IMG/VR virus record: IMGVR_UViG_3300008259_000011
Span: 70,144 to 134,143 of that record
DNA: 64,000 nt
Strand: one strand, 5' to 3'
DNA from: a virus
Part shown: positions 12,732 through 26,788 of the stretch, in pieces
How the letters are laid out: the number at the start of each line of letters is the position of its first letter
Numbering within the stretch: the stretch's first letter is position 1
Position numbers and translations under genes: made by a program
Notes under the pieces: model-generated
What the model was told of the DNA's origin: nothing
Database searches by the model: none
The model's input: the letters and a program-made list of their open reading frames with translations, nothing else

Positions 12732-13361
12732 TCAGATAAATTCTCTCTGATATCCAAATTCATTAAATACATCTTTGTATAGATCCCACACAAAATCAAG
12801 TTCTTTTTGAGTATAATAACTTTTATAATCTGTCATTTGTGAATTCTTCGGATCCCGTCGCAATTCAAACGTTTGAGAATTGCCTTCAAACTGATAATTA
12901 TTAGTAGTCAATCCATTTACCAAAGTGTTTGTGTGCGGATCTGTAAAATCTAAAAATGGCAATTTGTGCAAATCTTCAATCATATGTTCAACACGTATGT
13001 AAAAATCAGGTTTACTACTGTGTCTAATGATAAAATGTTCTTCAGACCTATCGTTACACTCTTCATTAAGATATTCTGAAAATGGTTTTTTTGCAACATA
13101 ATTTCCAGTTTCTGGATCCTCTCCAAAATGACGTAAATGCCATGTTGATACTATTTTTGCATAAGGATTTCTTATATTGCATACTAACGTATAATTATCA
13201 CACCCCGGTGGGATATCTGTTTCGTGTGTATATGACTCAGTAACCGGTATATTTAATCTATAATTATAGAATTTATAGTATGCAAGAATTTCAGATACAG
13301 ATCGACTAGCAGTTCGGGTTGGTAACCACCATACTACTTTTAAGTCGTGATTGACATTCAT
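12732..13361 (-). CDS. sulfotransferase family 2-like protein
   Basis: PTRTASRS PAPS-loop variant, IRNPYAK.VS, Y..DF..FGY C-terminus. Confidence 0.7.
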   Translation of the reverse strand: MNVNHDLKVVWWLPTRTASRSVSEILAYYKFYNYRLNIPVTESYTHETDIPPGCDNYTLVCNIRNPYAKIVSTWHLRHFGEDPETGNYVAKKPFSEYLNEECNDRSEEHFIIRHSSKPDFYIRVEHMIEDLHKLPFLDFTDPHTNTLVNGLTTNNYQFEGNSQTFELRRDPKNSQMTDYKSYYTQKELDFVWDLYKDVFNEFGYQREFI

Positions 13362-13369
13362 TATAATTT

Positions 13370-13443
13370 TGGAGCGGGTAGCCGGAATCGAACCGGCACA
13401 TCGACCTTGGCAAGGTTGCAGGCTACCACTACATCATACCCGC
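13370..13443 (-). tRNA. trnG: tRNA-Gly(GCC)
   Basis: cloverleaf, loop ttGCCaa, encoded CCA. Confidence 0.9.
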
Positions 13444-13455
13444 GCTCTTTAAATT

Positions 13456-13530
13456 TGGTGGACCGTAAGGGAATCGAACCCTTCCCTAAAGCTTGCAAAG
13501 CTCCTGTGCTACCACTATCACTAACAGCCC
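13456..13530 (-). tRNA. trnA: tRNA-Ala(TGC)
   Basis: loop ttTGCaa, G3:U70, CCA. Confidence 0.9.
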
Positions 13531-13579
13531 ATTAATGTCACATAAATAGTATTGATAAGTCTAAACCACAAAATTATAA

Positions 13580-14560
13580 TTAGGATTCTTTCCAACAAAA
13601 TAACAATCCATAATTAGAAAAATTAGTATTACCATCAATTTTAAACCCACATCTATCAATTTTTTTAACCATTTTATCATACATGATTTTATATTCATTA
13701 ATATTCATGAAATGATATTCAATTACCATTCTATCGACATTATATTTTAAATATGACTCTTCAATTCGGTCTATAATAGAATATTCGGATCCTTCACAAT
13801 CTAATTTTAGAAAATCGATTTTAGAAATATTATTGTCGAATATATATTGCATCACATCAATCGTTTGAACACTGGTCAACTCAAATATGTCATTATCTCT
13901 AATATAATTAGAGTCTTGTTTTTTTATAGTATTGTCAAACGTTTCAAGACATGACGATATACCATCCGATCTAATATAAAAGTTTTCAACGTGTGTTTTA
14001 TTACTCAATGCAATCGTATCAACTTTTACGTTTGTGAATTTATGACTGGCAATTGTATTTGATAATTTATAATTCGGTTCTATACTATAAACAAATTTAG
14101 CACCATCATACAAAGATTTATATGTAAAAAATCCAATATTTGATCCAACATCGACCACAACATCATTAGTTTTTACAAAACATTTAGGGTGATTATAAAC
14201 ACGATTACAAAAAATTTCATATAGTGGTATTGCAAGCAAATGAGTCGTCGTACATTTTAATCCAATATCTTTAAAATATCCACGTGAGTCGATGTTACTC
14301 AGATTGATACATCCATCAAAGTTTTCAACTTTAAATAAAAGTTCATTTTCATATTCGTCATACACTTCATATATTTTATGAACGACGTTTTGCGGAGTAC
14401 GAACCCATAACAACTCATTGGGATATACATCAACTAATATATTAAAAAAAATTAACTTGGTATAACCATCCAACACTTTTACTTTAACTTTATTTGGTCT
14501 ACCATCGTAAGTAAAATTTATTTTACAGCCGTTATCAGAAAAACTATGAAATGTAATCAT
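13580..14560 (-). CDS. FkbM family SAM methyltransferase
   Basis: VVDVGSNIGFF, SIEPN, IDFLKLDCEGSE, IEYH. Confidence 0.9.
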   Translation of the reverse strand: MITFHSFSDNGCKINFTYDGRPNKVKVKVLDGYTKLIFFNILVDVYPNELLWVRTPQNVVHKIYEVYDEYENELLFKVENFDGCINLSNIDSRGYFKDIGLKCTTTHLLAIPLYEIFCNRVYNHPKCFVKTNDVVVDVGSNIGFFTYKSLYDGAKFVYSIEPNYKLSNTIASHKFTNVKVDTIALSNKTHVENFYIRSDGISSCLETFDNTIKKQDSNYIRDNDIFELTSVQTIDVMQYIFDNNISKIDFLKLDCEGSEYSIIDRIEESYLKYNVDRMVIEYHFMNINEYKIMYDKMVKKIDRCGFKIDGNTNFSNYGLLFCWKES

Positions 14561-14636
14561 AACAATTTATATATTATGAGTCAAACCCTTATCTTTTATT
14601 ATTATTTATAAATAATTGCGTTATATACGATCAACT

Positions 14637-15371
14637 TTATGTAAATAACATCCATTGATTATCATATACTAAAACATTATCAATCACAATAGATCCAAAT
14701 AACTTATTTTCAATTTTATTACGCATTTTAATATTCAACTCAAACTGTTTTGCTGCCCGAATCACATCATGTCGTACATCGTCCCAATACCAGTCATCGC
14801 CAAACAATACCATATTAGGACGCATCAATTGTTCATAACAATCTATTATTTCATTATAAGTTTCATTCTTATAGTGTGCACTATCCAGAAAAATTATAGA
14901 TGGTAAACTAGATATACGATTATGATAACGCATTCTAGCTAACAATTTTATTCCAGTAAGAGATGTACAATTAATCGGTACAATTTTATTTCGATACTCG
15001 TAAGTATTTGCTAAAAACCGTTTGTAAATCGTAGGAATACCATTTTCAAACTGTAAAAACTTATATCCTTCACTCTTAGATTCCAAATCCCACATATTTG
15101 TGTCACCTGTAAATGGATCTATGCATACCACCGAAGAACTGTGTAATCCACATCTATTCAATGATTCAATAATCCGTATACAACTACCACCTACCATTGA
15201 TCCTATTTCTAGAACTGACTCTGGTAAATATTCAGTAAACAAACTATCTAATAAAGCAGGCGTTACATTCGTGTGTGGGTATGAGTTGTCTATATATTTT
15301 ATCACATCACAGTTTGTATACGGTGTGATATTATTATAAATCGTATGATTTAATTCTTTATATATTGACAT
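14637..15371 (-). CDS. class I SAM methyltransferase (Methyltransf_24-like)
   Basis: VLEIGSMVGGS, CIDPF, IFLDSAH, GDDW. Confidence 0.85.
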   Translation of the reverse strand: MSIYKELNHTIYNNITPYTNCDVIKYIDNSYPHTNVTPALLDSLFTEYLPESVLEIGSMVGGSCIRIIESLNRCGLHSSSVVCIDPFTGDTNMWDLESKSEGYKFLQFENGIPTIYKRFLANTYEYRNKIVPINCTSLTGIKLLARMRYHNRISSLPSIIFLDSAHYKNETYNEIIDCYEQLMRPNMVLFGDDWYWDDVRHDVIRAAKQFELNIKMRNKIENKLFGSIVIDNVLVYDNQWMLFT

Positions 15372-15693
15372 ACATTTTAAATATACTCAAATCAACTTCG
15401 TTAAACTTGATGTTGATTTTGTCACAACCCCAGTTGGTTGTCATGCATCTTTTTTAGCTTGATCAACAATTTTTTGTAATAAAATTGCGTGTTCCGATAA
15501 TAAACCTTTCAGTGTTTATATATAGTGTACGTCAAACTAAAAATTAAATTGGATGACCACGACTTGCGAATATACGAGGATTTCACGAAAACGTTCTTGA
15601 TTATCTGTTAACAGCTACATCAATATCTATCTCGTCAACTTCAGTCTTCTCCACCTCAACTGGTGGTGTTTTATAATTCTATATCACTAATGG

Positions 15694-15903
15694 TCAAATC
15701 TTTTCAACAATAATATTGTCTGTCACCGGTTTGCCAAGACATACTCTTGTGTTACAAACCATACAAATCAAATTATTCGTCATAACAGTTATTAAAGAAC
15801 CCTTGATAATACCAAGTTCCTGCAATCTTTGACTAACAACGTTAACCTCGACTATTCGTCCTTTTTCACCAGCTTTTAATTCGGTTAACTTATATCTCTT
15901 CAT
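15694..15903 (-). CDS. feoA: FeoA domain protein
   Basis: LTELKAGEKGRI, RLQELGI..GS.I SH3-like FeoA signature. Confidence 0.8.
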   Translation of the reverse strand: MKRYKLTELKAGEKGRIVEVNVVSQRLQELGIIKGSLITVMTNNLICMVCNTRVCLGKPVTDNIIVEKI

Positions 15904-15908
15904 TAAAA

Positions 15909-15982
15909 TGGTTGCCCGAACTGGATTTGAACCAATACAAAGAGAGTCAAAGTCTCTTGTGCTACCATTACACTATCGGGCA
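15909..15982 (-). tRNA. trnQ: tRNA-Gln(TTG)
   Basis: loop ctTTGac, U1-A72, CCA. Confidence 0.92.
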
Positions 15983-15994
15983 ATTAAAATCTAC

Positions 15995-16120
15995 TTACTT
16001 CTTACGTCGATGTCCTCTAACAGTACTCGACTTCACTCTAACATAAGATGTTCCACCTTTACGACGAATCTTTCGAACCGTCGATTTTCTATGATGTGTT
16101 CTTCTCCATGTTGTTGCCAT
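15995..16120 (-). CDS. 41 aa highly basic microprotein
   Basis: MATTWRRTHHRKSTVRKIRRKGGTSYVRVKSSTVRGHRRKK with TAAGGA RBS. Confidence 0.7.
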   Translation of the reverse strand: MATTWRRTHHRKSTVRKIRRKGGTSYVRVKSSTVRGHRRKK

Positions 16121-16128
16121 ATATTTCC

Positions 16129-16257
16129 TTACTTAGTACGACGTTTAGCGTGAACCGTCTTCGAATGTTTGACTCGGACTGTCTTAGTTCCAGTCTTCGT
16201 CTTGATCGTCCTATTATGTCCCTTTCGGGAGTGCGCCTTAACTGATTTAGTTCCCAT
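16129..16257 (-). CDS. 42 aa highly basic microprotein
   Basis: MGTKSVKAHSRKGHNRTIKTKTGTKTVRVKHSKTVHAKRRTK with AAAGGA RBS. Confidence 0.7.
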   Translation of the reverse strand: MGTKSVKAHSRKGHNRTIKTKTGTKTVRVKHSKTVHAKRRTK

Positions 16258-16276
16258 ATATTTTCCTTTCTTAAAT

Positions 16277-16350
16277 TGGAGCGGGTAGTGAGAATCGAAC
16301 TCACGCATAGGCTTTGGAAGAGCTTCAGGCTACCATTACATCATACCCGC
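16277..16350 (-). tRNA. trnG: tRNA-Gly(TCC)
   Basis: loop ctTCCaa, U73, CCA. Confidence 0.9.
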
Positions 16351-16355
16351 AAAAT

Positions 16356-16445
16356 TGGCGGTTGGGGAAGGATTTGAACCTTCGGGGGCTTTAAGACCCC
16401 GGAGCTTTAGCAAAGCTCTGCATTAGACCACTCTGCCACCCAACC
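16356..16445 (-). tRNA. trnS: tRNA-Ser(GCT)
   Basis: loop ttGCTaa, long V-arm, G73, CCA. Confidence 0.92.
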
Positions 16446-16450
16446 ATAAA

Positions 16451-16984
16451 TCATGTTTTATTTTGAACATTATATCCATTATGTTCAAGAACATCTTTAC
16501 ACAATTTAATAAAATCGTCAAGCAATAAATCTCCTTTTGCCATATTAGCATCTTTACACGCTAAACCCAAATTGTCAATATCACATCCACCACCTTTAGA
16601 TACTGGTATTATGTGATCACAATTGTAAGTTTTTGGCTCTAAAAGATCTATTTTTCTGCCTGTCAAATAACATACCGGATTGTTTGTTATTTTTGTTTCA
16701 AATTCTTTAATTGAAAAGTCTAAACTTTTTCGTTTTCCTTTTCCTATTCGTCTACCATTTACAAAACTAAAGTTATCTTTTTTCCGTCTCAATATACCTT
16801 TTAAGGTTTTTCTATTTGATTTGTTTCTTGTTTTTGTTTTTTCTTTTTGACCAACACCACAATGGTATGAAATAGTTCCTTTTGAACACTTCAACAACTT
16901 TTGTATCTCTTTGTACGATTTGCCTTGTTTTCTCAATTCTAATATTAATGGTTTCACATTAATATATAGTTTGGGTTCGAACAA
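16451..16984 (-). CDS. HNH endonuclease with N-terminal HTH (homing-endonuclease-like)
   Basis: CYLTG, DHIIPVSKGG..IDNL..AC..AN..K; lies between two tRNA-Ser genes; start uncertain. Confidence 0.85.
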   Translation of the reverse strand: MFEPKLYINVKPLILELRKQGKSYKEIQKLLKCSKGTISYHCGVGQKEKTKTRNKSNRKTLKGILRRKKDNFSFVNGRRIGKGKRKSLDFSIKEFETKITNNPVCYLTGRKIDLLEPKTYNCDHIIPVSKGGGCDIDNLGLACKDANMAKGDLLLDDFIKLCKDVLEHNGYNVQNKT

Positions 16985-17027
16985 AAATTAATAATAATTA
17001 TTCGAACTCGTTTTTATTTTCAAAGAA

Positions 17028-17115
17028 TGGCGGTGAAGGAGGGATTTGAACCCCCGGTGGTTTTACCCACTGCAGTTTTCAAGACTGCTGCAATAAACCG
17101 CTCTGCCACCTCACC
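17028..17115 (-). tRNA. trnS: tRNA-Ser(TGA)
   Basis: loop ctTGAaa, long V-arm, CCA. Confidence 0.93.
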
Positions 17116-17124
17116 GTTTAAAAT

Positions 17125-17216
17125 TGTCTACCGTTCGAAGCCGCCTTCATAGAATTACCTATGAGTCTAAGCGGAGTATATCTCCTCGTCCACCGTGTGG
17201 TTACGTTCAAACTAGC
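17125..17216 (-). ncRNA. unclassified multibranch structured RNA candidate
   Basis: closing stem GTTTGAA/TTCGAAC enclosing three hairpins; sits in a tRNA-sized slot. Confidence 0.35.
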
Positions 17217-17220
17217 AAAT

Positions 17221-17304
17221 TGGTGGGCGTAGTAGGATTTGAACCTACACGGATCGCTCCATGAGTTCCTAAGACTCACGTGTCTTCCATTTCACCATAC
17301 GCCC
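17221..17304 (-). tRNA. trnL: tRNA-Leu(TAG)
   Basis: loop ctTAGga, V-arm, CCA. Confidence 0.92.
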
Positions 17305-17310
17305 GTAAAT

Positions 17311-17387
17311 TGGTCGGAGTGACAGGATTTGAACCTGCAACAACTTGCTCCCAAAGCAAGTGCTCTACCAAGTTGAGCTACACTCCG
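17311..17387 (-). tRNA. trnP: tRNA-Pro(TGG)
   Basis: loop ttTGGga, C1-G72, CCA. Confidence 0.93.
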
Positions 17388-17397
17388 ATAAAAATTT

Positions 17398-17562
17398 TCA
17401 ATGAACACCAAGAAGATCCAAATACTTTGTCTCCGGTTGTGGTAGAATTTCATCTGCCACAGTCATAATTGCCTTATAGTAAGCATATGACGGATACTGT
17501 TCCGTAATCTTCATGTTCTTAAGATACTCGAAAAGAACTTTATTGTCAACATCAATTTCCAT
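17398..17562 (-). CDS. small hypothetical protein (54 aa)
   Basis: MEIDVDNKVLFEYLKN...LLGVH fills gap between tRNAs. Confidence 0.5.
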   Translation of the reverse strand: MEIDVDNKVLFEYLKNMKITEQYPSYAYYKAIMTVADEILPQPETKYLDLLGVH

Positions 17563-17582
17563 ATTTTTCTTTCTTTAAAAAT

Positions 17583-17657
17583 TGGTACACGGTGAGGGAT
17601 TTGAACCCCCGACAGCCACGGTGTAAACGTGGTGCTCTGCCGCTGAGCTAACCGTGC
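17583..17657 (-). tRNA. trnV: tRNA-Val(TAC)
   Basis: loop ttTACac, CCA. Confidence 0.92.
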
Positions 17658-17674
17658 ATCTCAATCGTTCATAC

Positions 17675-17702
17675 ATACTAACACCGAATCTGAAAATGTC
17701 AA
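17675..17702 (-). promoter_or_regulatory. sigma70-type promoter upstream of tRNA array 1
   Basis: TTGACA-16nt-TAGTAT. Confidence 0.65.
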
Positions 17703-17716
17703 TGATCTTTTCAAAC

Positions 17717-17781
17717 AAAAAACCGTTGATCTTTTGGACCAACGGTTTCAAATCTGAGCAATTGTTTTTTAACCGTTAGTC
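17717..17781 (-). terminator. attenuator 1: intrinsic terminator (17717-17748) with competing antiterminator strand (17771-17781)
   Basis: AAACCGTTGGTC-CAAAA-GATCAACGGTTTTTT; upstream GACTAACGGTT can pair with the terminator 5' arm. Confidence 0.8.
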
Positions 17782-17785
17782 TAGT

Positions 17786-17857
17786 TTAGCTTGCGCTAGG
17801 GAGTAGCGATGGACTTGGTTGTCCACTGGCTACACTTGACTGTACGGATAAATTCAT
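17786..17857 (-). CDS. leader peptide 1 MNLSVQSSVASGQPSPSLLPSAS (putative attenuation sensor)
   Basis: 23 codons; from codon 4 only Ser/Val/Gln/Ala/Gly/Pro/Leu(CUN), the amino acids of array 1 tRNAs. Confidence 0.8.
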   Translation of the reverse strand: MNLSVQSSVASGQPSPSLLPSAS

Positions 17858-17881
17858 TATGACAATACATATAGTTAAATT

Positions 17882-18814
17882 TCACAAATGTACATTATTT
17901 TTGAACCAAAAGTAAGTTTTTTCCAAACCGTCCATCAAATTTGTACGAGGTTTCCATCCCATCGATAAGATTTTAGAACTGTCCATGATCTTACGTGGCG
18001 TACCATCAGGTTTGGCAGTATCCCATACAACTTCACCTTCATACCCCACAACTTTACATACAGCTTCAGTTGCCTCTTTAATGGTAATATCAGATCCATA
18101 TCCCACGTTGATATGTTGATCAGCGCTGTAATTTTCCATCAAAAACACACACGCTTCCGCTAAATCATCAACATACAAAAACTCTCTCATAGGAGTTCCA
18201 CTTCCCCAACAAACAACTTGAGAATCATTCTTGATTTTTGCCAAATGGAATTTACGAATCAATGCGGGTAACACATGAGAGTTAATTGGATCGAAGTTGT
18301 CCTTGATACCATACAGATTGCATGGCATAGCACTGATAAAATCACACCCATATTGTTGACGATACGCTTGACATGTACGTATACCGGCAATCTTTGCAAG
18401 AGCATACCACTGATTGGTTGGTTCTAATTCACCGGTTAACAGATACTCTTCCTTAATTGGTTGCTGTGCAAACTTCGGATAAATACAACTGCTACCCAAA
18501 AACAACAATTTGTTTACGTTATATACGTATGACGCATTAATGATGTTATTTTGTATCTGTAAATTATTGTATATAAAATCAGCTGGGTATGTACTGTTGG
18601 CAATAATACCGCCAACTTTTGCTGCTGCCATTATCACATACTCTGGCTTTGTAGTTTCAAAAAATTTATTTACAGATTGTTGATTGGTAAGATCCAATCC
18701 ATTATGACCCACACCTATTAAATTCGTATAACCATTATTCAATAGTGTTCGCCAAATAGCAGATCCAACCATTCCGTTATGTCCGGCTACATAAATCTTC
18801 GAACCTTTATTCAT
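17882..18814 (-). CDS. fcl: GDP-L-fucose synthase
   Basis: AGHNGMVGSA, AAKVGGI, FLGSSCIYP, YALAK, SHVLPALIRK, WGSGTPMREF; likely start MNKGSK. Confidence 0.97.
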   Translation of the reverse strand: MNKGSKIYVAGHNGMVGSAIWRTLLNNGYTNLIGVGHNGLDLTNQQSVNKFFETTKPEYVIMAAAKVGGIIANSTYPADFIYNNLQIQNNIINASYVYNVNKLLFLGSSCIYPKFAQQPIKEEYLLTGELEPTNQWYALAKIAGIRTCQAYRQQYGCDFISAMPCNLYGIKDNFDPINSHVLPALIRKFHLAKIKNDSQVVCWGSGTPMREFLYVDDLAEACVFLMENYSADQHINVGYGSDITIKEATEAVCKVVGYEGEVVWDTAKPDGTPRKIMDSSKILSMGWKPRTNLMDGLEKTYFWFKNNVHL

Positions 18815-18884
18815 AGTCTTAATGGTACATATCAAATAACATATTATTAAAATGAAAAAACCACCCAAAGGTGGTTTTCTTTTT

Positions 18885-19118
18885 TCATCCATTCAAACGT
18901 GGCTTGTCACAACAATTGCTAAGTTTTAGAATTTCATCAAGTGACTCTTTAACCCGAATAGGTTCATGACGATTCTTGATAAAAATCAAACTGTGAACCT
19001 TGGACGGTTCAATGTTAATAACCATATCCAAGTTAATCAAATTTGGATTATACTCACGTTGCTTAGCGTTACCGTCATGACTAGGATCAAGTACGTTGAG
19101 TTTAATAAAGTGTGCCAT
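18885..19118 (-). CDS. FlbD-like small protein
   Basis: FIKL...IN.D.V..IE....VKESLDEI pattern. Confidence 0.55.
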   Translation of the reverse strand: MAHFIKLNVLDPSHDGNAKQREYNPNLINLDMVINIEPSKVHSLIFIKNRHEPIRVKESLDEILKLSNCCDKPRLNG

Positions 19119-19195
19119 AAATTGTGTCTATAAATAGTTAACCGGCAATGACATTACATCATTGCCGGTTGTTTGTCAACTATTATCGTCTAGAA

Positions 19196-19891
19196 TTAGA
19201 AGGTCAACTTAAGACCACCGGAATAAACGACGGTTCCAGAGAACTCACGATTTGCCCAATTATACTTGGCAGCATTGAAATCGTTATCGAACCATCCAAC
19301 TTCAGCAAATGGAGTCAAAGTACCCCAAGCAAAAGTGAACGGACGAGCAACAGTGCCCTTAAAGCTAAGGGACTTGTAGTCATTAACGTATCCATACTCA
19401 GCAGCTGGGGTGACAGTCACACCATAAAACAAATTCTGAGTACGGCTAAGTCCAACGAACACGCCTTGCTGATTAAGGTCAATATCGAATGCACCACGAA
19501 CATATGGAGTAACATATGGGTTGTTCAAGGCAACCTTGGCACCAAACTCAGTAGAGTTAGGAATACCAAATCCGCCAGCTTGGTGACGAGTAACATCAGC
19601 GGTAGTACGCAATGAAAACTTCTCGGTCAAACCAAAACTCTTACCAGCACCAAGTGTCCAGTGACTCTGATCTTGATCACCAGTTGGTAGCAACACACCA
19701 CCAGCATACACATCAGCATACTTTAGACTCTTGATTGCGTTGACACCAACAAACGGAGTTCCCCCAGAACGAGAAACACCATTGACCACATAGTGGTTAT
19801 TATAGCCAGCTTCGACTCCAATACTAGAGTCATTAGCCTTAGCGATTAGGGCAGCACAAAGAACTGCCAATACTGCGATCATCTTCTTCAT
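19196..19891 (-). CDS. outer-membrane beta-barrel protein with signal peptide
   Basis: MKK..AKA signal peptide, alternating beta-strands, C-terminal GGLKLTF. Confidence 0.8.
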   Translation of the reverse strand: MKKMIAVLAVLCAALIAKANDSSIGVEAGYNNHYVVNGVSRSGGTPFVGVNAIKSLKYADVYAGGVLLPTGDQDQSHWTLGAGKSFGLTEKFSLRTTADVTRHQAGGFGIPNSTEFGAKVALNNPYVTPYVRGAFDIDLNQQGVFVGLSRTQNLFYGVTVTPAAEYGYVNDYKSLSFKGTVARPFTFAWGTLTPFAEVGWFDNDFNAAKYNWANREFSGTVVYSGGLKLTF

Positions 19892-20140
19892 ATATGTTTA
19901 TTTCCTTTCGTTACTACACTTTTTATAACTACCTTAACACTCATTAAGTTTGTTATAGATTGATGTGATTCAAAGATACACATTCAATCATGTACGTGGA
20001 CAATATACCGTTAAACACCAAAAGTGTCAACGAATTTTTTCCAGTGATATATAGTTTTTACTTTTTTGAAAACTACGACGTTTTTTAGACCATATATACG
20101 CACAAAAAAAGCCAAACAACTTAATGTTTGACTTTAAATT

Positions 20141-20229
20141 TGGTACCACCGGCCGGACTTGAACCGGCACAGGATTTTACTCCCTGCGGATTTTAAGTCC
20201 GCTGTGTCTGCCTATTTCACCACGGTGGC
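20141..20229 (-). tRNA. trnL: tRNA-Leu(TAA)
   Basis: loop ctTAAaa, V-arm, CCA. Confidence 0.92.
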
Positions 20230-20239
20230 ACTATTAAAT

Positions 20240-20323
20240 TGGTGGGTATGGAGGGAGTCGAACCCCCACGCCTTTCGGCGGTTGATTTTGAGTCAACTAC
20301 GTCTGCCATTCCGTCACATACCC
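20240..20323 (-). tRNA. trnL: tRNA-Leu(CAA)
   Basis: loop ctCAAaa, V-arm, CCA. Confidence 0.92.
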
Positions 20324-20331
20324 GTAAATCA

Positions 20332-20418
20332 TCAAACTCATCGTGCTTCCTACCTACACTACGCCTCCTCATTGATTTGAGAGAGTGACGGACCTTGAAC
20401 CCGTCCCTATGCGTTTGA
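20332..20418 (-). ncRNA. circularly permuted tRNA-like RNA (YrlA/Y-RNA-like arm order)
   Basis: T-arm GGTTCAA precedes a closed acceptor-like hairpin and a D-arm-like segment; ends pair TCAAAC/GTTTGA. Confidence 0.5.
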
Positions 20419-20422
20419 AAAA

Positions 20423-20514
20423 TGGTAGCCTCATGCAGAATCGAACTGCCCAGAACGCCAATCGAGCGATTATAGAGATTATAAGTCTCCCCATGCACCT
20501 TACATCTTGAGGCC
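20423..20514 (-). tRNA. trnI: tRNA-Ile(TAT) with long variable arm
   Basis: loop ctTATaa, ~22 nt extra arm, T-arm, CCA. Confidence 0.75.
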
Positions 20515-20720
20515 ACTAAATGGTAGCGGGGCAGTCCTATTAAATTTTAAAGAACCAAATTGAAATTGGGTCGGATGTATCTATTGAACACTTTATCCAT
20601 CCGACAAACAAAGTGTACCATGTACTAGCCCCGCAACCAAGAAGTTTTTTAAGAGATCTTCAATACTCTAGGGGTTGTGGTTTAACCCTCCACCATGTTG
20701 TTTACGAGAAACAACCAAAT

Positions 20721-20796
20721 TGGTAGTCCATAGGAGAATCGAACTCCTATTAACAGGTTGAAAACCTGCTGTCCTAAACCATTAGACGAATGGACC
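20721..20796 (-). tRNA. trnE: tRNA-Glu(TTC)
   Basis: loop ttTTCaa, CCA. Confidence 0.9.
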
Positions 20797-20804
20797 GTTA
20801 AAAT

Positions 20805-20877
20805 TGGAGCAGGTCCGAGGAATCACACCTCACCAACTCACTAGAATGTGAGCATGCTCTCATTACATCTGACCCGC
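20805..20877 (-). tRNA. aberrant Gly-like tRNA, anticodon undetermined
   Basis: Gly-type acceptor and U73-CCA, but 6-nt loop ATTCTA and T-loop TGTGATT. Confidence 0.5.
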
Positions 20878-20886
20878 GTTAAAATT

Positions 20887-21175
20887 CTGGAAGGACTCCT
20901 GACTACCTTCAATTTTCACAATACTACATGCATTCGTCCACAGTCCACATGGTCAATTACTCCGTGTGTTGATGACTGGTGGGCCTTATTTTCCCCACAA
21001 CGACCTACGATATATCAGATATTATATTAGCTACGATGTCGTTACGCTTGGATTTCGGTTGATCGACCTAGATCCGCCATAGACTTGCCACATAGTATTA
21101 TTACTCATACCTTGCCTTGGTTCTTCACCTCAGCAGTGCGTTACCCCTATAAGAAGAGTTATTCCGCCACTAGAA
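20887..21175 (-). ncRNA. ~290 nt structured ncRNA candidate
   Basis: no plausible ORF, several helices, TTGACA..TATACT promoter just upstream (~21203-21230). Confidence 0.45.
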
Positions 21176-21240
21176 ATTGTCAAAGATCTAATATACCCTA
21201 GAGTATATATAGAGTGTTGAACTTGTCAACACAAAAAATT

Positions 21241-21315
21241 TGGTGCGTCCGGCGAGACTTGAACTCGCAACCAACAGATTAAAAGTCTGCTGCTCTACCA
21301 TTGAGCTACGAACGC
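21241..21315 (-). tRNA. trnK: tRNA-Lys(TTT)
   Basis: loop ctTTTaa, CCA. Confidence 0.93.
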
Positions 21316-21321
21316 GTTTGT

Positions 21322-21432
21322 TTAAAGATCATCATCTTCGTACCTAGAATTCATACCACAGAACCTAGCAACCATCAAGAGAAAAATGATGTAAATTGTA
21401 AGTCCGATAAGAAGTCCAAGTGCCAGTTTCAT
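21322..21432 (-). CDS. 36 aa single-TM microprotein
   Basis: MKLALGLLIGLTIYIIFLLMVARFCGMNSRYEDDDL downstream of a TTGACA promoter. Confidence 0.5.
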   Translation of the reverse strand: MKLALGLLIGLTIYIIFLLMVARFCGMNSRYEDDDL

Positions 21433-21466
21433 TATGGATACATCCTACACCGAGAATGTTGTTCTG

Positions 21467-21649
21467 TCAACTGTTTTTGTGAGAATTTTCTTTGATCCAA
21501 TCAAGACGGTGTTTGTTCACCCAATCTGTTAGTGCTTTTTCAAATCCAATATCAGCGTTGGCTTTTTCAGATTCGATCCACTTGTGTTTAAGAATTTCAT
21601 CCCGTATCTTAAGATATTTTGCATATGAAGATGTCGGTTTGGAACTCAT
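21467..21649 (-). CDS. DUF4032-like small protein
   Basis: EILKHKWIESEKA..DIGFE.AL.DW motif. Confidence 0.75.
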   Translation of the reverse strand: MSSKPTSSYAKYLKIRDEILKHKWIESEKANADIGFEKALTDWVNKHRLDWIKENSHKNS

Positions 21650-21706
21650 ACTCAAATAAATAGTTGTTCGTAACAAAACCGTTACATTTGAATGTATAAA
21701 TAAAAT

Positions 21707-21781
21707 TGGAGTTCCGTGTTGGATTTGCACCAACCTAATGCTGTTTTGCAGACAGCCGCCTAACTACTCGACCAACGAAAC
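21707..21781 (-). tRNA. trnC: tRNA-Cys(GCA)
   Basis: loop ctGCAaa, U73, T-loop TGCAAAT. Confidence 0.88.
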
Positions 21782-21787
21782 ATAAAG

Positions 21788-21866
21788 TGGGGTGTACGGC
21801 GGGATTCGAACCCGTATCTGCCAGACTCACAATCTGGGGCATTAAACCAGTTATGCTACATACACC
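21788..21866 (-). tRNA. trnH: tRNA-His(GTG)
   Basis: loop ttGTGag, G-1:C73, CCA. Confidence 0.92.
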
Positions 21867-21874
21867 ATTAAAAA

Positions 21875-21948
21875 TGGAGCCTCCAGCTGGTATCGATCCA
21901 GCGTTTCATCATTACCAATGATGTGTAATACCTTTATACTATGAAGGC
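21875..21948 (-). tRNA. trnT: tRNA-Thr(GGT)
   Basis: loop ttGGTaa, T-loop ATCGATA, CCA. Confidence 0.88.
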
Positions 21949-21953
21949 AAAAG

Positions 21954-22031
21954 TGGTACTGCCGGTAGGAGTCGAACCTACAACCTTCTGATCCGTAGTC
22001 AGATGCTCTAATCCAATTGAGCTACGACAGC
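21954..22031 (-). tRNA. trnR: tRNA-Arg(ACG)
   Basis: loop ctACGga, CCA. Confidence 0.93.
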
Positions 22032-22040
22032 ATTATAAAT

Positions 22041-22117
22041 TGGCGCACCCGGAGGGACTCTAACCCCCAACCTTTCCGGTAGAAACGGATGGCTCTATAC
22101 AATTGAGCTACGAGTGC
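22041..22117 (-). tRNA. trnR: tRNA-Arg(TCT)
   Basis: loop ttTCTac, T-loop TTAGAGT, CCA. Confidence 0.85.
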
Positions 22118-22127
22118 GTTAAAATTA

Positions 22128-22529
22128 TTAGTTATGCATATTACTACCAGCTCCATATCCATTTTGTAATTTTGGAGTATTTAAGATTTCATCTTTTGGA
22201 TCTGGATACACACTGAAAAAATAATGAATGTCATCATTCTTTTTATTTGTGGAATATAATAAAAAATTTACATTACCATTTGGATGTCCTCTACCGTCAA
22301 ATATATAATAATATTCAGGATCAGTGCCAGATAAGGCTGCTTTTGGCACATCTTTAACATATTTAAAGAACACCTCCGAAGATATTCTATATACATTATC
22401 ATCATCACCTAATGTATTTTGCATCCACATAGCCGGTTCTGTAGAATCATCACCCAATCCAAATTGACATATTAATCCTACACAATTACCCAAATATTGT
22501 TCTTTTAGTAAACTTGATAATTTAATCAT
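22128..22529 (-). CDS. hypothetical protein with MIKLxxLLxE motif
   Basis: likely start MIKLSSLLKE just after TATTTATA. Confidence 0.7.
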   Translation of the reverse strand: MIKLSSLLKEQYLGNCVGLICQFGLGDDSTEPAMWMQNTLGDDDNVYRISSEVFFKYVKDVPKAALSGTDPEYYYIFDGRGHPNGNVNFLLYSTNKKNDDIHYFFSVYPDPKDEILNTPKLQNGYGAGSNMHN

Positions 22530-22558
22530 AACTATAAATATATCAAACTTATTTAAGA

Positions 22559-22632
22559 TGGTAGGCAATCACGGTTCCGCCCCGTGGTCTTTCGATTATC
22601 AGTCGAATGCTCTACTATTGAGCTAAATGCCT
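22559..22632 (-). tRNA. trnI: tRNA-Ile(GAT)
   Basis: loop ctGATaa, atypical T-loop GGCGGAA, CCA. Confidence 0.85.
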
Positions 22633-22638
22633 ATTAAA

Positions 22639-22717
22639 TGGCGAGGGTAGCCGGATTCGAACCGAGCAAGTCTGCACAGTGACAGTGTGCTATGTTAGCC
22701 AATTACACTATACCCCC
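22639..22717 (-). tRNA. trnD: tRNA-Asp(GTC)
   Basis: loop ctGTCac, G73, CCA. Confidence 0.88.
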
Positions 22718-22728
22718 ATTAAAATTAA

Positions 22729-22833
22729 TCACCAACACGATAGTTAGCTCATAGGCATATTCGGTTATTGTTCGTCGTCAACAATAATCCCGCTATCTCT
22801 TTTACCACACGACCTGCTTCATAGAGTTGGTGA
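22729..22833 (-). ncRNA. structured RNA candidate
   Basis: perfect 8-bp terminal stem TCACCAAC/GTTGGTGA plus internal hairpin, exactly filling a tRNA spacer. Confidence 0.35.
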
Positions 22834-22836
22834 AAT

Positions 22837-22914
22837 TGGTGCAAGTGATGGGATTTGAACCCACAACCTTTCGGGTAAGAGCCGAATACTCTGATCCAGT
22901 TGAGTTACACTTGC
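22837..22914 (-). tRNA. trnK: tRNA-Lys(CTT)
   Basis: loop ctCTTac, CCA. Confidence 0.88.
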
Positions 22915-23100
22915 ATAAATGGTTTTCCTAGGATTTCACAGTTGTTCTCTTGTTTCGTGCCCTACTCCAAGATCTATCTAGTTCCGCCAGGTGCACCGAA
23001 ATTTTGGTATCACCTGTAAAATTTGTATCTATTATTGTCAACGAACGATAAACATCTTACCACACTTTATTGTTCCGTCAACAATATTCTTAAAAAAATT

Positions 23101-23853
23101 TTAAGTACTAACTGGTTTCTTTGGATAAGGTTGAACTGGTTTAACCAAGTTTGCCAGAATGTTCTTTCCTTCACTAGAGTTTGTACCGGATAAAATGTAA
23201 ATATACTTATGTTTACCGTAATCAATCCGTAATTCAAACGGACTGTCAGGATTTGTTTTTAAATCACGAACTGCATCTCCAGCAGTTTTAAATCCATATT
23301 TTTCTATCTGCGGTTTTCTATTAACCCATCTATCTTCATTTTTATCCCACAAACGTTTTCTAGTTCTACTCTTACCTAGATAAATTGCGTTTGTAGCTTG
23401 ATATACAGTGCCAGTGTGTCCTTGTTCACTATCAGACCGAGTAATAATTACTTTTACTTTAGGATAATTTTGTTTGATCGTTTTATTACCTAATCCAATT
23501 ACGTATGATGCCAAATTATTTTTTAATTCAGGTATTTCTTTCACTTCTGGTTTTAGATATAATCTTAACAATTCTAATAATTCATTCTGTTTAAGTAAAC
23601 TATTACCTTTATCATCCACAGCTATTTCTTGAAAATCTTGTGGCTTGGTAGTCTGTCCATATACAATAACCCCAACCATATCTACATTGCCATCAGGCAT
23701 CTTGTACATCACACCATAATTAACAGTAACCGCTGTTGGATACTTCTTTAGATAATGTTTGTTTATAAAGTCTATAACCTCAGACTTACTCTTTGGTTCT
23801 AGATATACACTATCTTTTAGAGATTCTATCAACAAACTCTTAAATGTTATCAT
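23101..23853 (-). CDS. Mom-like (GNAT-fold) DNA modification protein with MITFKSLLIE motif
   Basis: INKHY, GVIVYG, LELLRLY, SD.EQGHTGTVYQATN.IYLG match the Mu Mom family pattern. Confidence 0.7.
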   Translation of the reverse strand: MITFKSLLIESLKDSVYLEPKSKSEVIDFINKHYLKKYPTAVTVNYGVMYKMPDGNVDMVGVIVYGQTTKPQDFQEIAVDDKGNSLLKQNELLELLRLYLKPEVKEIPELKNNLASYVIGLGNKTIKQNYPKVKVIITRSDSEQGHTGTVYQATNAIYLGKSRTRKRLWDKNEDRWVNRKPQIEKYGFKTAGDAVRDLKTNPDSPFELRIDYGKHKYIYILSGTNSSEGKNILANLVKPVQPYPKKPVST

Positions 23854-24156
23854 ATCGTATAAATAGTAAACATTGAGGATTTCACGGGGGATAATTACTT
23901 CTAGAGAGTAAGTCCCAAACGGCTGTATAGCCTTACCGTTCCACATTTTATACTCCTTCACCAGAGGGAATCGAACCCCAGAGAAATGTGTCTATCTCAA
24001 AAATATATGAGTGGTAGCTGCACCCACTCTCCGTCTTCCCAAGTTTCTCGTCTGGCCACATCTAAGGGCATCCACTTGGATAGTTGATATCGGAGTATAG
24101 AGGCAATAACTCTTTGTTCAGATATGAACAATCCTTTACAAGTCTTGTTCAAAAAA

Positions 24157-24232
24157 TGGCCCGATAGGTTGGTAACGCTCCAACGTCCCTTCGTCTTCAG
24201 CGAAGTGCTAATACTATCTCAGCTACTACCGG
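24157..24232 (-). tRNA. trnF: tRNA-Phe(GAA), atypical
   Basis: loop ctGAAga, T-loop AGCGTTA, G73, CCA. Confidence 0.8.
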
Positions 24233-24245
24233 ATTATAAATTAAA

Positions 24246-24328
24246 TTGACAAGTCAAAGGAATCGAACCTTTTCGGAACAGCAGCATCACTGCTCCTTTA
24301 CCACGCCCTGCGCACTAGCACCTGTCAA
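24246..24328 (-). ncRNA. tRNA-like RNA without CCA
   Basis: terminal stem TTGACAGG/CTTGTCAA, canonical T-arm AAAGG-TTCGATT-CCTTT, no standard anticodon loop. Confidence 0.45.
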
Positions 24329-24334
24329 AGTAAA

Positions 24335-24433
24335 TAACAGAGTGGTTTTGAACCAATCCCATAGAGAATCGTGCATCTTGCCTGGCGTCAAACTCCAAGC
24401 CTTCATTGCTAATTCGATCTATACACTCTGTCA
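24335..24433 (-). ncRNA. structured RNA with T-loop-like hairpin
   Basis: 10-bp terminal stem TGACAGAGTG/CACTCTGTTA, GGTTCAAAACC. Confidence 0.4.
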
Positions 24434-24450
24434 AATCGTTTTTTGATACA

Positions 24451-25278
24451 TTAAAATCTAATATCATCAGTGGAATCGTCAAATCTTTTCTCTAATGGAA
24501 TTGGAACTCCATCGTCATCATAAGTAATCAACTCCGCTGATTTAACTTGATTTGGGTTAAAAACTGCATATACAATTCCTGTACCCGAATGAATTTTTCC
24601 TTCAAATCCACGATTTTCAATTTGAATAAATCCTGTGTATCCTTTGTTCTGAATCCATTCTCTTAAAGACAGCCACTTTCCACCATTTCGGAAAGCCCAT
24701 AATTCTATAATAGACCAAGAAGATTCATCAATAGCTTGATATACAGAATCTATAACTTTAACTTTATTAGAGTCGTCGTATCGTCTATAATCTGGATCTC
24801 TCCACGCCCATTCATGTTCATATTCATCTGTTAATTCTTGAGGTATGTAGTGTGTTGGATTATCCGTTCCAGACATTCCGAATAAAGAGTATTCTGTTCC
24901 AGGCATCATTCCATTTTCTTTCTCTTTTTGAAGTTGCCATTCATAACATTTTTTTATAACAGATTTTAAAAACTGTTTCGTTTTTGAATCTCTCAAATCA
25001 AAGAAATTGGCTTTTAGATAAACTTTGTAAATTTTACTATTTTTACCGAACGACGTTGTACCTTGTCCTGTCTCTTTTTTATAAATTTCCGCATGTTCTT
25101 TATTATCAGTAAAATATAACGCTCCTCTTTTTGAGACTCTAAAATTGTTAAAGGATTTATCACCTATAACAGTTCCGTGAAATAAAGGTCCGACAGTATA
25201 ACCTTTACTATTTGCTGCTTTTTTAACGTCGGCTTCATCCCATTGAGATTCCACAATTAGAGATTTAAGTTTAATCAT
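24451..25278 (-). CDS. ADP-ribosyltransferase-like (ART-PolyVal-type) protein with MIKLKSLIVE motif
   Basis: FHGT, LYFTDN...A..Y, VYLK, GYTG, YAVFNPNQVKSA. Confidence 0.7.
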   Translation of the reverse strand: MIKLKSLIVESQWDEADVKKAANSKGYTVGPLFHGTVIGDKSFNNFRVSKRGALYFTDNKEHAEIYKKETGQGTTSFGKNSKIYKVYLKANFFDLRDSKTKQFLKSVIKKCYEWQLQKEKENGMMPGTEYSLFGMSGTDNPTHYIPQELTDEYEHEWAWRDPDYRRYDDSNKVKVIDSVYQAIDESSWSIIELWAFRNGGKWLSLREWIQNKGYTGFIQIENRGFEGKIHSGTGIVYAVFNPNQVKSAELITYDDDGVPIPLEKRFDDSTDDIRF

Positions 25279-25309
25279 ATATCATATAAATATAACAAAT
25301 CAAAAAAAC

Positions 25310-25418
25310 TAATCTGCATGGTTGGAATTGAACCAACGGCCCGTGCTTATTCACACTTTTACGGTGTCATTTACCATCATAGTGAGCACTGATCTACCTC
25401 TGAACTACACACAGATTA
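25310..25418 (-). ncRNA. tRNA-like RNA with ~37 nt expanded anticodon loop, no CCA
   Basis: acceptor, D and T arms present; GTGCT/AGCAC stem encloses a long insert. Confidence 0.55.
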
Positions 25419-25421
25419 AAA

Positions 25422-25484
25422 TGGTGGGGAGCCTTTCAGCGCCAGATTTACAGTCTGGACCATCTCTTTAATGGTATAATACCC
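25422..25484 (-). pseudogene. truncated tRNA-Tyr(GTA) lacking the T-arm
   Basis: CCAGA-ctGTAaa-TCTGG anticodon arm and CCCCACCA end, no TTCRA arm. Confidence 0.6.
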
Positions 25485-25494
25485 CGAAAAATTT

Positions 25495-25764
25495 AACGTC
25501 ATATGTTTGTTTCACCATATGACAGTGACTGAGGTTCTTCTTTCACCGTTACGTTCTAGTTATCCTCACCTATGCACAGGTAGAACGGCTTTAGTCACTT
25601 CAGAAGATGGCTATTCGATGTTGGGTTACGGGATGACTTACACAGTCTAATTATAACCTACAGTCAGATATCTTGTTGTAGATCAACCCACTCACTCTCC
25701 ACGACTGCCTCACTTGCAATTGAAGCATCTTTCTTCAGCATCGTGAGTCTGCTGACATCGAATA
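25495..25764 (-). ncRNA. ~270 nt multi-domain structured RNA candidate
   Basis: long-range stems TATTCGATGT/ACATCGAATA, AGTGACT/AGTCACT, GTCATATG/CATATGAC; no ORF. Confidence 0.5.
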
Positions 25765-25768
25765 AAAT

Positions 25769-25894
25769 TGGCTCCAGAGGAAGGGCTCGAACCTTCAACA
25801 TTTCGGTTAACTTCAGCCTTGTGAGATTTGCACTCTCTATTAAATAGTACTTTATAGCCCACAGCCGAACGCTCTACCATTGAGCTACTCTGGA
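25769..25894 (-). tRNA. trnN: tRNA-Asn(GTT) interrupted by 51-nt insert in the anticodon loop
   Basis: removing 51 nt restores a canonical 75-nt tRNA with loop ctGTTaa. Confidence 0.8.
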
Positions 25895-25902
25895 ATTGAA
25901 AA

Positions 25903-25976
25903 TGGCTCTCGGAAAAGGAATCGCACCCTTATCATTCGGGTAACAACCGAAGGTAATACTATTATACGATCCGAGA
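25903..25976 (-). tRNA. trnN: tRNA-Asn(GTT), atypical
   Basis: loop ttGTTac, T-loop TGCGATT, G73, CCA. Confidence 0.82.
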
Positions 25977-26146
25977 ATTAAAAATTGATTTGAAAGCGTG
26001 GATTCTCTTACCACTACTTGGGGTGCGTTGCACTTCCGTTCTGATTTCAACAGACTCTCTTTCAAAAATGTTTACTGGATTTCACAATTGTTCCACTTAC
26101 TAATCACAATCTCGTCAGACTGTGATTTTCAATGTCTATCAGTGTC

Positions 26147-26265
26147 AATACATTACTTACTACTTCATCACCTTTTATTGATCGGATTCGAACCGATACT
26201 TCCACCGTATCGTGGTGTTGTTCTACCATTTAAACTACGTGTGTGTTGCCTTCACCTAATGTATT
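26147..26265 (-). ncRNA. tRNA-core mimic on a long stem
   Basis: D-arm, anticodon-like arm and T-arm GGTTCGAATCC without acceptor/CCA; closed by AATACATTA/TAATGTATT. Confidence 0.5.
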
Positions 26266-26272
26266 TGAAAAT

Positions 26273-26347
26273 TGGCATGGACGGTGGGTAACGCTCCCAC
26301 ATTAGGCAGTTTTGGAGACTGCTACATTTCTTGTCTGTCACGTCCAT
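26273..26347 (-). tRNA. trnW: tRNA-Trp(CCA), atypical
   Basis: loop ctCCAaa, G73, T-loop AGCGTTA, D-loop lacking GG. Confidence 0.8.
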
Positions 26348-26355
26348 ATTAAAAA

Positions 26356-26434
26356 TGGCAGCCTCACTCGGAGTCAAACCGAGTTCTCCGGATTGAGAAT
26401 CCAGAATCCTATTACATTCGTAGACGATGAGGCC
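26356..26434 (-). tRNA. trnE: tRNA-Glu(CTC)
   Basis: loop ttCTCaa, CCA. Confidence 0.82.
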
Positions 26435-26498
26435 ATTACATGAGAGTTTTGATGGAACGCATCAACATCGGTCATCTACCGATACTCTCGAAAAAGTG

Positions 26499-26587
26499 AG
26501 CCTCCAGTCAGGTTCGAACTGACAAAGGATTATTAGTCCATTCTCGATTACAAATCGAGGCCGATAGCCAATTCCGGTCATGGAGGC
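26499..26587 (-). tRNA. trnT: tRNA-Thr(TGT) with long variable arm, CCA not encoded
   Basis: loop ttTGTaa, GCC/GGC acceptor, ~18 nt extra arm. Confidence 0.78.
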
Positions 26588-26758
26588 ATAAAAAATTTTC
26601 ACTTACTTCCAATGGATTTTTCACCTATCGTTGGTAGCCATACTATTCCCAGTACGACCGGCGTCTCCTATTCCTTGGCCCGCCTCTACGGTGTTTTGAT
26701 AAGTTCAAAACTTCAAAAAACTCAAGGACAACCGTGTGCCGTCCTTCATCATGTAAAC

Positions 26759-26787: not shown

Positions 26788-26788
26788 C

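Follow-up and report, generated by a model that had tools for sequence, protein, structure and literature searches.

Two complementary transfer RNA arrays in a viral genome, each behind a putative attenuator whose leader samples the codons of its own array

Multivalent leader-peptide attenuators control amino-acid operons of enterobacteria such as ilvGMEDA and thr, and leaders of this kind also include trpL, hisL and pheL. The transfer RNA (tRNA) clusters of T4- and T5-like phages consist of many tRNA genes on one strand with interspersed homing-endonuclease genes. To our knowledge, leader-peptide attenuation is known for amino-acid and a few other operons and not for tRNA genes, and we know of no leader open reading frame (ORF) or attenuator ahead of T4- or T5-like tRNA clusters; a full-text literature search, which had subscription journals and supplements outside it, returned no description of tRNA arrays preceded by an attenuator or a leader peptide. 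The present work concerns two arrays of tRNA genes, and the short leader ORFs that precede them, in a 64,000-nucleotide (nt) stretch of DNA (here called the window), which forms the right-hand 64 kb of the 134,143-bp virus record IMGVR_UViG_3300008259_000011 (G+C 37.9%). The arrays probably form two tRNA regulons, each under a ribosome-mediated transcription attenuator whose leader samples the codon boxes of its own array. The virus appears, from its major capsid, portal and terminase proteins, to be a distant T4-like myovirus, with a capsid protein 55-57% identical to those of Microcystis phage Mel-JY01 and Flavobacterium phage immuto and 63-98% identical to those of many uncultured viral contigs.

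As in the enterobacterial attenuators, a short ORF stands ahead of the genes, its codons would name what is sensed, a terminator would compete with a putative, mutually exclusive antiterminator, and the position of the ribosome is predicted to decide between the two. Unlike the enterobacterial systems, the predicted targets are tRNA genes and a transfer-messenger RNA (tmRNA) gene rather than biosynthetic enzymes; the leaders sample 8 or 13 codon boxes between one and five times each, where an enterobacterial leader repeats one to three amino acids in runs; the two leaders complement each other and jointly cover 21 codon boxes; and a promoter follows the terminator. T-box riboswitches likewise sense tRNA status and control a downstream terminator, as is predicted here, but they bind one uncharged tRNA directly and without translation. 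The phage leaders appear not to be T-boxes, and no T-box match was obtained at the gathering score across the whole window, nor at E values up to 1 within 11800-26700. The one-strand tRNA genes and the endonuclease gene among them resemble the T4- and T5-like clusters, and a plausible use of such genes is to sustain translation when host tRNAs fail.

The evidence that carries this reading is the match between each leader and the array behind it (Table 1). For scoring, a codon was assigned to the array whose tRNA serves its box, with Leu, Ser and Arg boxes split by their first two letters. By this measure 20 of the 22 codons of leader 1 lie in array-1 boxes, two in array-2 boxes and none in neither, while leader 2 has 19 of 22 in array-2 boxes, two in array-1 boxes and one, a Tyr codon, in neither; every box of the respective array is sampled (8/8 and 13/13). 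Codons 4-23 of leader 1 belong without exception to array-1 boxes, and codons 2-20 of leader 2 belong to array-2 boxes apart from the Tyr codon, whose tRNA gene is decayed here and intact in relatives. Even the division of leucine is mirrored, with CTA and CTC in leader 1 and TTG in leader 2, the exception being TTA as codon 3 of leader 1. Eight runs of at least 20 codons of the array-1 set occur in the six frames of the 134-kb genome, where coding frequencies (set frequency 0.377) predict 0.0009; of the eight, seven consist of low-complexity repeats, and the one that remains is leader 1. Among 96 windows of 19 codons of the array-2 set, leader 2 alone contains all 13 of the amino acids of that set, the next best having 11, and random draws of 19 such codons reach 13 amino acids in 112 of 100,000 trials. 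The match is thus far beyond chance, and the two leader regions share nothing with each other except a 13-nt terminator tail. The original prediction of a two-channel sensor-effector design is therefore borne out as far as the mirroring of arrays by leader codons goes; the action of sensor upon effector is what we infer from that mirroring.

The surroundings of the leaders fit this reading. The genes of the phage lack Shine-Dalgarno sites (a loose match precedes 15 of 91), and 24 of the 82 copies of the motif TATTTAT end 0-19 nt ahead of the ATG of a long ORF, where 1.0 would be expected. Since this motif lies 11 nt before the ATG of leader 2 and, with one mismatch, 7 nt before that of leader 1, the leaders begin like the other, probably late, genes of the phage. 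Each leader is followed by a terminator, and that of leader 2 is 98.6% paired in eight homologues, with one compensatory change. In leader 2 the antiterminator 5' strand is complementary to 26811-26828, which includes the 5' strand of the terminator; the duplex is computed (RNAduplex) at -21.1 kcal/mol against -11.8 for the terminator, a value equalled by none of 300 shuffles, and it is 94.8% paired in the eight homologues as against 28-58% when the strands are slid. Across the leader-2 types the duplexes range from -17.8 to -21.1 kcal/mol and the terminators from -10.9 to -13.1, and with 300 shuffles for each type none is as good in seven of the eight and two are in G014. In leader 1 the duplex with 17737-17748 has -16.2 kcal/mol, matched by 16 of 300 shuffles.

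Folded without a ribosome, leader 2 forms its terminator, the antiterminator strand being bound by the 5' half of the ORF, and in the ribosome-free minimum-free-energy fold of leader 1 the antiterminator strand pairs with codons 2-7 (17838-17852). A footprint model, in which a ribosome footprint of 30 nt was placed on the transcripts of eight leaders cut before the terminator 3' strand, has the terminator 5' strand sequestered while the ribosome is still upstream and released once it occupies the last codons in four of them (leader 2 of G011 and of L104, leader 1 of G011 and of G014); the pattern is partial in leader 2 of the window, and none is clear in leader 2 of G014 or in leader 1 of the window and of its close relative. 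The geometry of the strands fits classical attenuation, but the folding evidence is no more than suggestive.

The relatives retain the pairing of leader and block. The close relative G001 (capsid 98% identical) carries Leu-TAG, Ser-TGA, Ser-GCT, Ala, Gly-TCC, Gln-TTG, Gln-CTG, Ala, Gly-GCC and the tmRNA, which is the order of array 1 without its HNH endonuclease gene. In G011, a 295-kb genome rated complete (capsid 67% identical), block 1 runs tmRNA, Gly-GCC, Ala, Gln, Gly-TCC, Ser-GCT, Ala, Leu-TAG, Pro, Val, and is followed by a 5.9-kb gap, in which there is a homologue of a 231-amino-acid ORF of the window, and then by a block that runs from His to Cys; the two-block layout also occurs in G014, G027 and G025. 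In each of these four genomes (G025, G011, G027 and G014) a tmRNA-proximal block of Val, Pro, Leu-CUN, Ser, Gly, Gln and Ala genes stands behind a leader of those amino acids and the other block behind a leader of the others. The random assortment that would have spoken against the predicted partition is not seen. In every one of the four relatives whose sequence shows the region (G001, G011, G014 and G020), the tmRNA is either inside block 1 or immediately behind it. The block-1 leaders of the same four two-block genomes vary in length and in the order of their codons and keep the same seven amino acids, and each has a terminator and then a TTGAC(A/G) promoter behind it. A degenerate search returned leader-2 homologues in eight contigs. 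In seven of these the leader runs straight on to a Thr/His/Arg/Glu/Trp array; in L106, the remaining one, the DNA examined stops just past the terminator of the leader. In the four two-block relatives, too, the stop codon of the leader is overlapped or followed by an antiterminator strand.

Table 1. Features of the window that bear on the two arrays, with the leaders of relatives
Feature	Position	Strand	Description
Leader 1	17786-17857	minus	23-codon ORF MNLSVQSSVASGQPSPSLLPSAS, then stop
Leader 1 antiterminator 5' strand	17770-17782	minus	4-16 nt after the stop codon
Leader 1 terminator	17719-17749	minus	13-bp stem and T-run
Sigma-70-type promoter match, array 1	17675-17702	minus	TTGACA-16-TAGTAT with TG; directly before tRNA-Val
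Array 1	13370-17657	minus	9 tRNA genes: Val-TAC, Pro-TGG, Leu-TAG, Ser-TGA, Ser-GCT, Gly-TCC, Gln-TTG, Ala-TGC, Gly-GCC
tmRNA	12309-12708	minus	ARAGORN and Rfam (142 bits); downstream of array 1, same strand
Leader 2	26864-26935	minus	23-codon ORF MNHLYTNIKRWNTFTRDCECVDG, then stop
Leader 2 antiterminator 5' strand	26857-26874	minus	Last three codons, stop codon and next seven bases
Leader 2 terminator	26793-26819	minus	9-bp stem and T-run
Sigma-70-type promoter match, array 2	26759-26787	minus	TTGACG-17-TAGAGT; between terminator and array 2
Second hairpin with T-run	26746-26724	minus	After the array 2 promoter match
Array 2	20141-26587	minus	18 intact tRNA genes (Thr-TGT to Leu-TAA), 2 insert-bearing tRNA-like genes, 2 remnants
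Acceptor-less tRNA remnant	26180-26238	minus	Rfam
tRNA-Asn-like gene	25772-25894	minus	51-nt insert in the anticodon loop; Rfam
tRNA-Tyr remnant	about 25418-25465	minus	GTA anticodon arm, variable arm and 3' end with CCA; T arm and 5' half gone
tRNA-like gene	25313-25414	minus	About 30 extra nt in the anticodon loop; Rfam 40.6 bits
Internal promoter-like site, array 2	21202-21229	minus	TTGACA-16-TATACT, 11/12 matches; heads Glu-TTC, Ile-TAT, Leu-CAA, Leu-TAA
Terminator-like hairpin	20108-20135	minus	6 nt after the last array 2 gene
Lone CAT tRNA (Met-CAT)	47591-47667	plus	ARAGORN and Rfam; outside both arrays
G011 block-1 leader			MNSVSQPSQASQLPSGS; own-block codons 12/16, own-block boxes sampled 7/7
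G027 block-1 leader			MNLISQPSQASQLPSGS
G014 block-1 leader			MNTFVQLFVVGPALASAASQPSLVLG; own-block codons 15/25, own-block boxes sampled 6/6
G025 block-1 leader			Near copy of window leader 1 with an in-frame 3-nt insertion
G011 block-2 leader			Own-block codons 16/24, own-block boxes sampled 10/10
G014 block-2 leader			MIITRTANKNHYWFNNKTDRSDDC; sequence unrelated to window leader 2, same kind; own-block codons 19/23, own-block boxes sampled 10/13

The division of the tRNA genes into two sets must be separated from the match of the leaders to those sets, for the split by itself would be ordinary. The tRNA genes were called with ARAGORN and with Rfam. ARAGORN places 9 genes in array 1 and 16 in array 2, all on the minus strand, and finds no other tRNA or tmRNA in the whole genome except the tmRNA and Met-CAT; Rfam adds Ile-GAT (22562-22632) and Glu-CTC (26359-26434), which brings the intact genes of array 2 to 18, and three ARAGORN calls (Ile-TAT, Trp and Thr-TGT) have no Rfam match at the gathering score. 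This confirms the predicted contents of both arrays and the separate location of the lone CAT tRNA; the Tyr remnant is real as well and matches intact Tyr-GTA genes of relatives. Twenty-seven intact genes on one strand within 13.2 kb fit a phage tRNA gene cluster. The prediction had also stressed that the arrays share no anticodon, which is true and trivial: the 27 genes have 27 different anticodons, so the statement holds for any partition. At the amino-acid level Leu is the only family divided between the arrays, along the CUN-UUR line as predicted. A random 9-gene subset equals this separation of families in 3% of trials, 15 of the 26 ways of cutting the gene order once leave no more than one family divided, and the gap between the arrays (2483 bp) hardly exceeds one of 2378 bp within array 1. 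Four-fold boxes make up 6/8 of the array-1 boxes and 2/13 of those of array 2 (Fisher p = 0.018), a post hoc comparison from which no conclusion is drawn.

Protein genes are interspersed in both arrays. Array 1 is interrupted by the HNH endonuclease gene and by two methyltransferase genes, one of the FkbM type, and ORFs with an ART-PolyVal domain, Mom-like and of 146 amino acids lie among the tRNA genes of array 2. The HNH gene (16451-16984, minus strand, between Ser-TGA and Ser-GCT) looks like a recent insertion, since the close relative G001 lacks it at the corresponding position. No strong terminator-like site was found within either array or, in the window, between array 1 and the tmRNA; the suggestion that the tmRNA, downstream on the same strand, shares the control of array 1 is plausible on these grounds, its position having been confirmed.

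The mechanism proposed for the two attenuators would operate as follows. Transcription would begin from the late-type promoter motif that lies 7-11 nt ahead of the ATG of each leader, and the transcript would be nearly leaderless. If all sampled codons were decoded fast, the ribosome at the stop codon would cover the antiterminator strand, the terminator would form and transcription would stop; if any sampled codon were slow, its tRNA being scarce, uncharged or cleaved, the ribosome would stall upstream, the 5' strand of the terminator would be taken up in a pairing with the antiterminator, and RNA polymerase would enter the array. In channel 1 the read-through would extend to the tmRNA. The sigma-70-type promoters past the terminators would provide demand-independent, probably early, expression. 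The two-set split would be inherited, the tmRNA-proximal block being an old module and array 2 a fusion of modules, and the leaders would track the sets.

Several observations weigh against attenuation of this kind. In both cases a conserved match to a sigma-70-type promoter comes after the terminator and ahead of the first tRNA, and TTGAC(A/G) -35 and TAnnnT -10 elements recur in relatives at the place of the array 2 promoter, so that at neither array is the attenuator joined to its genes without an independent promoter between them; the arrays are thus expressible without the leaders, read-through is perhaps just one of two inputs, and each terminator could merely close the upstream unit. 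Array 2 further contains an internal promoter-like site and its interspersed protein genes, and it is composite: in G011 a third block of Arg-TCT, Lys-TTT, Glu-TTC, Met, Ile-TAT, Leu-CAA, Leu-TAA and Ile-TAT genes lies 76 kb off on the other strand, while its counterpart in the window is the 3' end of array 2, behind the promoter-like site 21229-21202, and array 2 is accordingly a fusion of two ancestral modules. The mirror of codons and tRNAs is conserved in relatives but looser than in the window, 7 of the 24 codons of G011 leader 2 having no tRNA in either adjacent block, and no convincing leader was found in the fetched tRNA regions of the more distant G006, G007, G008, G009, G010, G013 and G016.

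The folding analysis contributes further reservations. The antiterminators of the leader-1 type are only moderately above shuffles (4-35 of 300 as good), and that of leader 1 is never fully covered or uncovered in the footprint model. Equilibrium folds of the whole sequence keep the terminator at most simulated stall positions, the flip to the antiterminator occurring in window leader 2 at A-site codons 9-11 only and at no position in any of four leader-1 sequences. The leader 2 antiterminator is conserved rather than covarying, with no two-sided changes in the eight homologues and 500 of 500 shuffles reaching the observed covariation. The transcript data come from four metatranscriptome runs in the form of contigs, in which ends, strand and level are not shown and DNA carry-over is possible, and coverage gaps and depth were not used as evidence. 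One contig spans 26716-26893 without mismatch, covering the end of leader 2, the terminator and the promoter, another that is 93% identical spans 26592-26830, and a third bridges the Val-Pro spacer (17368-17622); that RNA crosses the leader 2 terminator is a weak hint, because the contigs lack ends, strand and amounts.

The main rival explanation invokes history only: inherited tRNA modules would have grown by duplication and insertion and be driven solely by their own sigma-70-type promoters, with the small ORFs and terminators ending upstream units or having no function. This is unlikely, even though it would account for the promoters past both terminators, for a block order that is syntenic in relatives together with an inter-block gap holding homologous 231- and 77-amino-acid ORFs, for the fusion in array 2 of modules that are 76 kb apart in G011, for a lack of overlap that 27 anticodons in 27 genes make automatic, and for an antiterminator without covariation. 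What such a history leaves unexplained is the match of each ORF to the boxes of its block (20/22 and 19/22 codons, 8/8 and 13/13 boxes), the standing of both ORFs as genome-wide outliers, the constancy of composition under a changing peptide sequence in G011, G027 and G014, and a strand at the stop codon that is complementary to the terminator.

Two further explanations accept less of the attenuator. The leaders might be translated and sense decoding while acting on another output, such as how stable the tRNA precursor is or how it is processed, Rho-dependent termination, or some function that the peptides have themselves; the stop codon on the antiterminator strand, which is a requirement of classical attenuation, together with leader-1 peptides that are not conserved and a C-terminal part of leader 2 that varies with the RNA pairing and not with the peptide, makes this distinctly improbable, although the core of the leader-2 peptide is conserved at the amino-acid level in eight contigs, there is a strong hairpin within the leader-2 ORF, and beyond the promoter come another hairpin with a T-run and a conserved element of 80 nt. 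It is very improbable that the leader regions are non-coding structured RNAs whose apparent codon composition simply follows from their base composition and hairpins. It is true that the two arms of a 13-bp hairpin inside the leader 2 ORF consist of the codons for T-F-T and C-E-C, and the leader 1 region is richer in G+C than its surroundings, but all 12 leader sequences examined retain an ATG and an in-frame stop and measure 17-28 codons, insertions and deletions preserve the frame (3 nt distinguish the window from G025, and G011 differs from the L104 type by 12 as against 18 nt), a run of the length of leader 1 is scarcely expected by chance, and the leaders of G014 differ in sequence and hairpins with the same composition. 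No other known leader family was identified within 11800-26700 at E values up to 1 either, and the leader 2 ORF and terminator (26793-26935) were scanned for known RNA families at the gathering score only; weak Rfam matches to wcaG, Phe_leader, YrlA and Plastid-ycf2 are far below that score and were taken as chance.

The tRNA regions of the seven more distant relatives were also screened for leaders by codon content. A filter for the two codon sets returned positive controls only, and in a generic test of ORF codons against the tRNA block that follows, applied to 134 small ORFs, no non-control survives correction. The best non-controls, uncorrected, are a 37-amino-acid ORF of G006 before a two-tRNA block (p = 0.0015) and a 12-codon ORF of G010 (p = 0.002). 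The latter, MLTKTSTIFTIE (L092/L093, about 2640-2678 of L093), lies before a Met/Ile-TAT/Lys/Thr/Glu block that reads 8 of its 11 codons, and it may be a third kind of sampler leader. Several of the seven have Ser, Val, Pro, Leu-CUN, Ala and Gln tRNA genes side by side.

Other features were noted in and around the arrays. A conserved element of approximately 80 nt (CCGTAGAGGCG, GGAGACGCCGG, GGCTACCAACGATAGGT; about 26620-26700, minus strand) is found downstream of the sigma-70-type promoter and ahead of the first tRNA. In the window it stands before array 2, but in L098 (G014) and L114 (G027) before block 1, just ahead of tRNA-Val; it has no Rfam match. A second, different conserved element of about 120 nt occupies a like position in G011 and G014. 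Between Lys-TTT and Glu-TTC, the stretch 20896-21136 (minus strand) reaches a word depth in RNA-library contigs of 2350 (X15), 427 (X16) and 36 (X18) as compared with about 1-70 in neighbouring bins. Illumina adapter letters flank it on either side, an indication that the non-coding block behind the promoter-like site 21229-21202 gives rise to an abundant small RNA about 240 nt long; the stretch has no Rfam match. RNA contigs of two studies (X15 and X18) contain a joint 25809->25861 that skips exactly the 51 nt of the tRNA-Asn insert, so that either the insert is spliced out or relatives without it are present. The tRNA-like gene at 25313-25414 would have the anticodon GAA if its insert were removed, with an unusual T at position 37. 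Two genes called by ARAGORN alone have long variable arms, namely 20423-20514 (92 nt, TAT, Ile AUA) and 26498-26587 (90 nt, TGT, Thr), both on the minus strand; Ile-TAT genes are also called by ARAGORN in G008, G010 and G011, the two of G011 having 92 and 93 nt.

With respect to the source of the genome, 78-90% of sampled words of 17500-27100 are present in lake-water and freshwater metagenome runs. A megablast search of 13000-27000 against phage records gave a sole match of 57 nt of tRNA-Pro, an exact 45-nt word of tRNA-Val had no match among viral contigs, and a search through the 483-amino-acid ORF upstream of leader 2 returned no relatives. An epimerase was rejected as a marker of kinship, its matches being cyanophage sugar genes that are uninformative on that point, and Mel-JY01 (one tRNA match) and immuto_3-5A (three tRNA matches) were rejected as cultured test systems, having no comparable arrays. 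The GC skew of the window is very strong, at -0.32 to -0.41 in 28-34 kb, -0.41 in 50-52 kb and +0.41 to +0.46 in 52-58 kb, and the G+C content steps from about 35% to about 45% at 34 kb.

A wider role can be proposed, which is held tentatively and at somewhat less than an even chance. The two leaders and arrays might constitute a two-channel homeostat of the tRNA pool, in which complementary sampler peptides monitor 21 codon boxes and each turns on only the failing half of the tRNAs, channel 1 also turning on the tmRNA, as an inducible counter to tRNA-cleaving defences or to phage-induced tRNA exhaustion, and in which the codons of the leaders co-evolve with the genes of the arrays. One published account treats phage tRNAs as a counter to such defences (PMC11555353). 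The locus contains its own internal control, in that two leaders of complementary codons stand before two complementary tRNA sets in one genome, and relatives change the peptide and keep the match. If the proposal is true, phages would regulate their tRNA supply by gauging the speed of decoding itself, which would bear on the question of why phages carry tRNAs, whether for the matching of codon usage or for the evasion of defences, and would provide a compact natural sensor for the state of many tRNAs at once.

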